DNA of 39,873 bases, taken from a virus. Below, one piece after another: positions 1-3,000 of this stretch (its first letter is position 1; the number at the start of each line of letters is the position of its first letter). The stretch lies in the UHGV virus genome UHGV-0062059; one strand, 5' to 3'. The position numbers were made by a program.

Positions 1-3000
1 TCACTCTGCCAGATGGCGCAATGCCATCTGGTATCACTTAAAGGTATTAAAAACAACTTTTTGTCTTTTTACCTTCCCGTTTCGCTCAAGTTAGTATAAA
101 AAAGCTGAACGAGAAACAGAAAACACTGTAAATATCAATATGTTATGAAAGATTTAGTCTAAATAATAGACTGCATAATACTACAAAACACAACATATCC
201 AGTCACTATGAATCAACTACTTAGATAGTATTAGTGACCTGAGGCAGAGCATTAGCGCAAGGTGATTTTTTGTCCTCTTGCGCTAATTTTTTGTCAACGG
301 ACTTGGTTAGTTGAATTTACAACCATGCTCAGTATCTCGATAAGCGCAGAGAAATGATGCAGTGGTGGGCGGATTGGCTTGATGAGAAGGTAGAGTGATC
401 CGCCTTAACAACTATCGAAGAGCACAAAGCCTTGTGTGTCTCATAGGCTATGAAACAATCATTTTACATGGTTACTTCACTACTTCCGCACAATATGATA
501 TCGTTCACAATCTAAAAATATTAATAATTTATCCATTACCGCGGTTAATGCCCGTCGCTTCCAACGGGCTTTTTTGTAAATTATATTTTTATTACCTTAT
601 ATTAATATTGGTAATATGTCTGCATGATGTTTTATATTTAATTTCGTTGACGTCAATATTTTTTGCCAATGTACTTACTTCTTTATGTGAGCAGTTCATA
701 TTTTTGACGCCAACGAAACATTTAGTGCTTCCCTTCTATTAAGTCTAACCTAGCTTTTATTCTTTCTATTTCTCTGCGCTGCCATGCCGCCTCGATATAG
801 AATAAGAGATCAGGTCTGACCCCCCATCTAGATCCTGCTGGCGTTATTTCAACGCGCTCAATGATGTCTTCCATTACCATCACTGGATTATCATCCTCAT
901 CAACAATGATGCTCCCGTCATTATCAGTCAGCGGCATTTCCCTTTGGCCAGTAATGACGTCATCATATACTGCGGGATAATCGTCATAGCAAAGAAAGGC
1001 ATAGCGGCATGTTGTGCTTTCTTCTTCCATGAGTCCGTGAGAAATAAGAACATCACGAAGTTGCTGCGCGATTACACCATGATGTATCCTCGCCCCTTCT
1101 TCCCCCTTTATAGCGACAGCGTTCAGCCATTTATAAGCGATATACCTGACGTCACCCCAGGCATCCAGCAATGCTTCGTCAGGAGAGACCGGCTCTGTCT
1201 TTAATGTTCCGTCACTGGTAATCACAGGATTGGAGCCAAGATAAACTGTCGAGAACCTGTTTCCCGGACCACCAAGAGCATTTACATTATCAAGATAAGG
1301 TTTAACATCTCCGTTCTCAAAAAGATGTTCGAGTGCGTTATATACCGCGCGACGTGGAGTACTGCTTCCGGAACCATGCAACGTTATCATTGCACCATCT
1401 GCTGAAGACGTTGTTTCACCTCCGCTAACGATTAATCTCTGAGCGGTAACATCATCAGACGGTACTTTCTTCGCAATAATGGCGTAATTACCCTCAAGTT
1501 TGACTTCCGCGCGAACTTGTCCTGATGTACCTGCATGGACAGTCAGTGACTGGACGGCAACATCATCTGTGAAATCAACGGGTACAGGAACCGTCCTCAC
1601 GCCTGACGTCGACATAAAAGTAGGAAGCGTTCTGTTAGGAGTGGCTCCGTAGACAAAATCCCTTGAAACAAATTCTTCCTGTTTAATTTTCACCCTGAAA
1701 CAATACAAATCAGCCGGGTGACCATCGTGAACATAAGGATATTTTCTGTTGTTATCCCCTATGCTCCATGGGTTTAGAAAGTCTTCCCCACCGAAAATGT
1801 AGTACAGCCAGTTGTCTTTGATACAAACTGAACCAACACCAACCGCAGAGTTAACTATTCCGCCCTGATAAATCTGATCAGTAACATTAACCCACTCTAC
1901 ATTATCCAGACTCCACTCATTGACGTTAACTCTGGTCATAAATGTTCTTGGATAATTTCCTGCATAACGGTTATCAGGTTCTCCTCCTTCCCACTCACCA
2001 AATGCGCGCTCACTGCCAAAAATAATCAGCTCATCGCCAACTTTGGCAAAAGGAAGGTTTGAGTGATGAACATTATTTGGGAAGCGAAGAGAATTCCATG
2101 ATGTACCTAAATCAGAGCTTCTGTGCAATGAACTACCGGGTTGAGTACTTAATGTCCCCCTGGTCGTCAGATACAGAATGCCATCATAATATTTTACACA
2201 TGGCTCAGATGCATTCGCCTCATATTCTACAGGTATGCGTCTGCGAACAAAGCTACCAGGAGAACCGAAAGCATCAGAGAAATAGAGTATCCCAAGCTCG
2301 CGTGGATCAATATCACCATTATGGTAGCCAACAGCAAAACTGTTATCGCTAATCGTCGCAAAACTGTGAATCTCAGTAACAGGAGTGCTTCCGTCAACAA
2401 AAGAAGGAATAGTTCCAAGACTGGTTTTTCTCCATGGTGACGAGTGAAATGATGTACCAAAACTCCAGTATCTACCCTCGTTATTCTGATCCACATCCTG
2501 GGTATTTTGCGTCGTAACTGTAAAAGTATTTTTATCAATAACAGTAGTCACCGTCATATTCCCGGTAACACCTGTAACACCAGAGTTTGAGAAGTTGACA
2601 AAATCACCAGCAAATAATCCGTGATCAGTAATGCGAATATAAGCGACTTGCTGATTTGCTGCTTTCGTTATACCACCATAAACGCGAAGGCTGCGACTCA
2701 TTGGGCGATCCCACAACTCTGCAACCTGCAGTTTATTTCCGCTCACGGTCCGCGTCTCAATTACAGCAAAAAGGCGATTTCTGACAACCCCCATACTCAT
2801 GCAGTGATAGTTAACTGTGGGATAGTTTTCATGTAAATCTGTAAGCCATTCCGGCGTTGTCCAGGTCTTCCCGTCATCTCCTGAGCGAACCCATGCAACA
2901 TGGAGGTTATTTACACCATGGCGGTCTCCAGCCATAAAAGGCGCATAGATGACATTGTCATATACAAACGTTTTATCCTGCGTCCAGGCGTTGTACCACG

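Follow-up and report, generated by a model that had tools for sequence, protein, structure and literature searches.

The viral genome UHGV-0062059 (39,873 nt; called the window below, meaning the whole stretch of DNA analyzed) begins at the first base past the stop codon of ybhB, a gene of the Escherichia coli chromosome, and ends with the stop codon of int, a lambda-type integrase gene. Its first 640 positions lead from host DNA through a lambda-type attachment site, which is interpreted here as the right prophage end (attR) of a P22-like phage, into a retroregulator, the remnant of a different integrase gene and a site from which the neuO module of phage CUS-3 is missing. The features are as follows, with the six elements within the P arm placed by motif position.

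1-90, plus strand: E. coli chromosomal DNA, the bio-proximal B' side of attB, 100% identical to K-12 C600 (L002:2501-2590)
9-31, plus strand: host stem-loop, arms 9-17 and 23-31, loop 18-22 (7-33 when extended in RNA)
87-95, plus strand: putative B' core-type Int site, CAAGTTAGT, placed by motif position
91-105, minus strand: common core O, 15 bp, GCTTTTTTATACTAA on this strand, equal to lambda 27724-27738
94-100: 7-bp overlap region TTTATAC, inside the core
99-107, minus strand: putative C core-type Int site, CAGCTTTTT on this strand, contributed by the phage, placed by alignment and motif position
106-240, minus strand: lambda-type P arm, from alignments with lambda, 434, HK97, JEP4 and Huey and from motif positions
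133-145: H2, putative IHF site
161-177: X2/F, putative Xis/Fis site
185-197: X1, putative Xis site
200-209: P2, putative arm-type Int site
211-223: H1, putative IHF site
231-240: P1, putative arm-type Int site
244-296, plus strand: sib retroregulator/tI intrinsic terminator, from matches to lambda, HK97 and 434 and from the RNA fold; stem arms 251-261 and 277-287 (a perfect 11 bp), T run 288-293, extended stem 243-295
296-314: joint of lambda-type and CUS-3-type DNA, 19 nt, placed where the homologies end
315-398, plus strand: scar consisting of the last 27 codons and stop of a CUS-3/Sf6-type integrase gene
630-640: site without the neuO module, holding one copy of the 11-bp repeat TTTTATATTTA, from comparison with CUS-3

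An initial annotation, made from the sequence alone, had claimed that the window opens in host DNA and that its minus strand reads P arm, core and then B' flank, and both claims were borne out. Positions 1-105 match the unoccupied site of E. coli K-12 C600 (L002:2501-2605) at 100% identity; there, the ybhB coding sequence ends at L002:2500 and window base 1 falls directly after the stop codon. The alignment to the attB region that had been proposed as a check thus returned full identity to K-12, and the flank (105-110 bases, E=7e-50) was found in 5414 of the 5426 complete E. coli genomes searched. The core TTAGTATAAAAAAGC, which is the reverse complement of the lambda core, is exact and occurs in a single copy in the window; in 100 shuffles of the sequence, with 0 or 1 mismatch allowed, no chance matches are expected even at one mismatch. 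At base 106 the K-12 sequence aggcttcaacgg..., which runs toward ybhC, gives way to tgaacgagaaac... in the window. On the minus strand, the segment 296-87 shows 87% identity to lambda 27534-27742 (E=4e-69). Since the minus strand reads sib-P-O-B', the junction is, on the order of its sequence elements, an attR by the lambda convention, on the bio side. For annotation, this places the edge of the prophage at window 91-105 and identifies att-lambda as the site of integration. The junction is carried by 20 of the 5426 complete E. coli genomes, a carrier being a genome with a locus covering at least 80% of window 1-720, and these include the O7:K1 strains CE10 and IAI39.

A lambda-type attR comprises arm-type Int sites, IHF sites and Xis/Fis sites at lambda spacing. 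In a multiple alignment of the window with lambda, 434, HK97, JEP4 and Huey, the P-arm elements are in register with those of lambda, 434 and HK97. Compared pairwise with lambda, the arm contains two 2-nt indels that cancel, and therefore its length and spacing equal lambda's. The X2 variant of the window (e.g., TATGCAGTCTATT) is also that of 434. The assignment of motifs to proteins across the att site follows the established lambda map of the Landy type (Landy 1989), as does that of the B' core-type Int site at 87-95. Past the arm, the sib/tI sequence folds on the plus strand with an energy of -27.2 kcal/mol (z=-5.9), including the extended stem expected of sib, and the same sequence is annotated as 'sib retroregulation site' in HK97 and as 'terminator' in 434. 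This hairpin and the start of the integrase remnant both fall within the range 1-350 of the initial annotation, which does not name them.

The genes that would act on this site lie at the opposite end of the window:

38137-38606, plus strand: left part of the lambda-type cassette, orf114 (38147-38491) and the pI region
38607-38825, plus strand: xis, excisionase gene (Pfam Exc)
38803-39873, plus strand: int, lambda-type heterobivalent tyrosine integrase gene, its stop being the last codon of the window

Homology to lambda over 38576-39873 amounts to 97.9%. The predicted Int is identical to lambda Int at 352 of 356 residues, with differences at 164, 245, 248 and 250, none of them catalytic, and it matches the Pfam domains Arm-DNA-bind_1 and Phage_integrase. 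Xis is identical to lambda Xis at 71 of 72 residues, and the CII-type motif TTGC-N6-TTGC of pI was located at 38581-38594 by reading the sequence. The prophage is in the lambda attachment site because it carries lambda's integration genes.

Integration is expected to duplicate the core at the far end of the prophage, and this was assessed in relatives: eight distinct contigs encoding an Int identical to that of the window, and E. coli MS20659, which contains the closest prophage. In the eight contigs, a 73-nt P' arm follows the int stop, the core lies at 74-88 past it, where the initial annotation had suggested about 85 bp, and the sequence then continues with aggcttcaacgg... into the B arm and the start of ybhC (Pfam Pectinesterase), 135 nt after int. 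In MS20659, which matches the window at 719 of 720 positions over 1-720 and at 99% over 80% of 15000-39873, two direct copies of the core lie 40,909 bp apart, and their outer flanks, once joined, reproduce the K-12 attB with 0 mismatches over 165 positions. The attL (B-O-P') of the present prophage would accordingly be placed just outside the window, next to int, with a B arm that would open with AGGCTTCAACGG past the core.

The rest of the window specifies a virion of a different kind. Pfam matches include P22_CoatProtein, P22_portal, P22_Tail-4 (gp4) and Phage_stabilise (gp10-type), together with Phage_tail_NK (the Sf6-type needle knob) and Inj_translocase (the P22 injectosome translocase), and the DNA matches CUS-3, phiv205-1, Kapi1, Sf101, HK620 and Sf6. 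The tailspike gene (722-3667, minus strand) is of the K1 endosialidase type; its product shares 970 of 981 residues with CUS-3 siaK1, an endosialidase that has been experimentally characterized. The late genes are transcribed toward attR. The proposal that near-lambda int and xis combined with a P22/Sf6-like virion mark a recombinant lineage therefore holds, given the Int and Xis identities above and the Pfam set of P22 virion proteins. Such a 'recombinant lineage' is the normal mosaicism of lambdoid phages, and the combination is already on record.

Taken together, window 1 to about 300 is almost certainly the attR (P-O-B') of a complete-looking P22-like prophage (Lederbergvirus, CUS-3-like, with a K1 endosialidase) that occupies the lambda site of an E. 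coli chromosome, with ybhB and ybhC to either side. By analogy with lambda, Int and host IHF would have recombined attP (P-O-P') with attB (B-O-B') across the 7-bp overlap in the 15-bp core, which would have left P-O-B' beside ybhB and bio at the tailspike end and B-O-P' beside int. Upon induction, Int, Xis, IHF and Fis, acting on P2, X1/X2/F, H2 and the P' sites of attL, would excise the phage. In the circular phage, sib/tI would lie downstream of int-attP and limit Int expression from pL, whereas 38.5 kb separate it from int in the prophage, an arrangement that would permit synthesis of Int and Xis on induction. Retroregulation classically rests on this separation of int and sib. The integrated sib/tI would also face read-through from bioA-ybhB. 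Because the late genes read toward attR, headful packaging in situ would run into ybhB-bio-uvrB, which are the genes attached to the phage record vB_EcoP-720R6 (ON470605.1). Packaging in this direction would fit both those host genes and the lateral transduction reported for a related phage.

Several points weigh against this interpretation, although none of the findings contradicts it. We infer from the sequence motifs, rather than observe, that Int, IHF, Xis and Fis bind the arm and that the site is competent for excision. The X2/F segment departs from lambda, resembling instead that of the functional phage 434. Duplication of the core is shown only in relatives, the attL of this prophage being beyond the end of the window. 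Finally, no full-length match to window 15000-39873 was found among the 5,426 complete E. coli genomes, the best being MS20659 (80% at 99%).

The junction could be real and the prophage nevertheless defective and locked in place, with attR a relic instead of a working excision substrate. The P arm is only 87% identical to lambda's and is changed in X2/F, but its variants are common to the free phages 434, HK97, JEP4 and Huey, and every arm motif is kept. Int carries four substitutions, but every catalytic residue is likewise retained. Although attL is unseen for this genome, CUS-3-like prophages are reported to decay frequently (PMC9659370) and the closest relative, MS20659, contains an IS100 insertion, the window itself has uninterrupted open reading frames (ORFs) for int, xis, repressor, replication, lysis, terminase, portal, coat, ejection and tailspike functions. 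A locked prophage is thus unlikely.

Less likely still, and by a clear step, is an origin outside the chromosome, in which the sequence would stem from a phage particle or a phage record containing host DNA, such as a lambda-bio-like specialized transducing genome or laterally transduced DNA. The nearest record, vB_EcoP-720R6, is indeed a phage genome with uvrB-bioDCFBA-ybhB at the same attR, and lateral transduction by P22-like phages at this site has been described (bioRxiv 10.64898/2026.05.19.726188). However, the limits of the window are gene boundaries (ybhB stop and int stop), as for a region cut from a chromosome, and 20 complete chromosomes have this junction; moreover, a P-O-B' junction would look identical either way. 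That the resemblance to the lambda att site reflects chance or an assembly chimera is already refuted by the zero expected chance matches to the core, by the E values of flank (7e-50) and arm (4e-69) and by the independent presence of the junction in 20 complete genomes, with nothing found in its favor.

Within the preferred interpretation, a chromosomal attR of a P22-like prophage, the exchange of integration modules can be followed to the base. Homology to lambda and HK97 stops at 295/296, and identity to CUS-3 begins at 315. From there, the scar translates as IYNHAQYLDKRREMMQWWADWLDEKVE and a stop, which are the exact last 27 residues of the CUS-3 integrase, and window 315-629 corresponds to CUS-3 1266-1580 at 314 of 315 positions. 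The 853-bp block of CUS-3 (1581-2433) with neuO, a phase-variable contingency locus for O-acetyltransferase of the K1 capsule that lies between int and the tailspike gene, is cleanly absent at window 629/630, with identity resuming at 630; in CUS-3 this block is bounded by an 11-bp direct repeat, TTTTATATTTA, of which the window has a single copy. Toward the int end of the window, the CUS-3 early-left region can be followed up to 38136, just past a terminator hairpin, and the corresponding window point, 38136/38137, lacks the argW attP core found at the ends of CUS-3. The recombinant origin is directly visible in this comparison of sequences, with breakpoints at 38136/38137 and 296-315. A lambda-type block of about 2 kb (orf114, pI, xis, int, P'OP and sib) replaced parts of a CUS-3-like ancestor, namely its argW-type attP and the first ~358 codons of its int, leaving the last 27 codons as a scar. 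The possibility that the window represents CUS-3 itself was rejected, as both neuO and argW-type integration are absent.

The same remnant beside sib occurs in the siphovirus 434 (L016) and in the P22-like phages JEP4 (L006) and Huey (L018), and is absent from lambda and HK97 in the alignment. The scar thus accompanies one sub-type of the lambda cassette and could be ancient. One tentative scenario, which we regard as possible though not the likelier outcome, is that the 84-nt remnant marks a single ancestral displacement of a KplE1/Sf6-type int by the lambda-type xis-int-attP-sib and later served as a homology patch for swapping the lambda cassette across morphotypes. Whatever its history, the scar offers a base-resolved teaching case of an integration-module swap. 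Separately, in the att-lambda prophages of the O7:K1 strains CE10 and IAI39, an acyltransferase gene (neuO) is still present at the spot from which it is missing in the window.

The host flank also contains a hairpin, which the initial annotation had put at 10-32. Its existence was upheld but its position was not: the inverted repeat CCAGATGGC/GCCATCTGG has 9-nt arms at 9-17 and 23-31, one base to the left, which are 100% complementary around a 5-nt loop. The hairpin begins 8 nt past the ybhB stop and folds as RNA with -19.4 kcal/mol (z=-4.8). It was left uncalled in a terminator consensus scan because it lacks a U tract, and an intrinsic terminator was rejected; an annotated repetitive extragenic palindromic (REP) element was rejected as well, as the MG1655 annotation has no repeat there. 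An Rfam scan of 1-1000 returned nothing for hairpins, its single hit being a sub-threshold chance match to anti-hemB (16 bits vs a cutoff of 49.5). In a YbhB-based comparison of 80 Enterobacteriaceae loci, a stable stem-loop directly follows ybhB in most. Escherichia species retain the stem at 9-31; in L022, from an E. coli lineage that has diverged, one C-G pair has become U-A by compensatory change, and a G-U pair has become G-C. Other genera have REP elements or other hairpins at this position, and many Citrobacter and Enterobacter species have REP-like GCCGGATG...CATCCGGC stems after ybhB, which the 9-31 sequence resembles. The hairpin thus belongs to the host, at the 3' end of ybhB, and a REP-like origin or a (stabilizing) role at the mRNA 3' end appears plausible for it. 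Lying some 55 nt outside the minimal attB of about 21 bp, it has no evident part in recombination.

Side observations were made on attB and attR sequences elsewhere. Kosakonia, some Enterobacter and E. whittamii have the exact attB core and the B' and B bases closest to it (cttcccgtttcgctcaaC TTAGTATAAAAAAGC aggctt) in their ybhB-ybhC spacer, and Intestinirhabdus has a near-exact version (L040, L043, L049, L065 and L074, from Kosakonia spp., Enterobacter sp. kpr-6 and Bisph1, and L019 and L036); the spacer has otherwise diverged. Among the compared ybhB-ybhC loci, those of Citrobacter, Salmonella arizonae and most Enterobacter lack the core. The pattern points either to a role of the core in the host, the ybhC start codon being 46 nt downstream, or to its repeated restoration by att-lambda phages. 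In enterohemorrhagic E. coli (EHEC), lambdoid prophages integrated at ompW (PPompW, tandem Stx2a; L099:2501-2773, equal to LC567822.1 37687-37959, and ~10 sister records) contain a complete but diverged (81%) internal fossil attR. It consists of sib, the P arm, a core with two changes and about 75 nt of ybhB-side B' flank, lies between the tail host-specificity gene and espO/nleG effector genes, and resembles what an aberrant, lambda-bio-like excision from att-lambda would leave behind.

Further features near the junction are the following:

395-742, plus strand: ORF of 115 residues, 'hypothetical protein' in the 720R6 and RefSeq annotations
550-579, plus strand: terminator-like hairpin downstream of the integrase remnant, from a terminator scan

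The 395-742 ORF is probably an annotation artefact and not a gene, as it has no Pfam match, begins in the integrase remnant and overlaps the 3' end of the tailspike gene. Next to the tailspike gene lies a Mnt/Arc-type repressor gene (3814-4065, plus strand). In the early region, the gene for a DnaB-like replicative helicase of 797 residues (25698-28091, minus strand) has a LAGLIDADG/Hom_end match at residues 393-454, between DnaB N (3-95) and DnaB_C (540-762). Because the homing-endonuclease match is between the DnaB domains, the helicase gene appears to contain an intein; in the MS20659 annotation, this gene is split into a 'partial' coding sequence and a separate one. The early-left region also includes a gene for a Nmad5 (nucleotide-modification-associated) protein (31218-31901, plus strand).

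Compared with the attR of lambda, the window has an identical 15-bp core, the attB flank between ybhB and ybhC, the same order and spacing of P1, H1, P2, X1, X2/F, H2 and C, and the sib/tI hairpin. It differs in that its P arm and sib are only 87% identical to lambda's, although int-xis reaches 98%, in one extra base in the sib loop, and in what follows sib, which is the integrase scar and P22-like tail genes rather than the lambda b region. The core and attB are also those of 434, HK97, HK106 and the mEp phages, and 434 has in addition the same P-arm variants and the integrase 3' remnant beside sib; these phages, however, are siphoviruses with lambda- or HK97-type virions, whereas the virion of the window is P22-like.

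CUS-3, from the E. coli K1 strain RS218, has a tailspike that is 99% identical and is likewise a K1 endosialidase, and it matches 65% of window 1-20000 (the virion half) and 47% of 20001-39873 (the early half) at ~97% identity. In contrast to the window, CUS-3 integrates at argW with a KplE1/Sf6-type Int, has its attP upstream of int and carries neuO. CUS-3-like prophages have been noted between pgl and bioA (PMC9659370). Thus, K1-capsule-specific CUS-3-like phages occur at att-lambda without neuO, which matters for surveys that use neuO or argW as a proxy for CUS-3.

Counterparts also exist among P22-like phages. vB_EcoP-720R6 (Lederbergvirus) has the attR junction at 99.5% over window 1-420, host flank included, with uvrB-bioDCFBA-ybhB joined to it. 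JEP4 and Huey combine P22-like virion genes with an uninterrupted attP, sib and the int remnant; Gally has P22-like virion genes and matches over the att region, and all three encode a lambda-like Int of the 356-residue type. The tailspike genes of JEP4 and Huey are shorter and not of the CUS-3 type, that of Huey being annotated as colanic-acid degrading, and the early regions of 720R6, JEP4, Huey and Gally are only partly shared with the window. For the P22-like phage phiHS3, experiments have shown integration upstream of ybhC and excision, both spontaneous and in response to mitomycin C, and the phage can be induced by the SOS response (bioRxiv 10.64898/2026.05.19.726188). It belongs to the same clade as the window prophage, and it is probably a P22-like phage with a lambda-type integration module. 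A literature search pairing 'P22-like' with 'lambda integrase' returned nothing specific. That lambdoid phages exchange their integration modules in mosaic fashion is textbook knowledge (Casjens and Thuman-Commike 2011, as cited in bioRxiv 10.64898/2026.05.19.726188). Current understanding is unchanged by the window and its practical value is limited: the junction and design are already known in kind, and nearly in sequence, from these phages.

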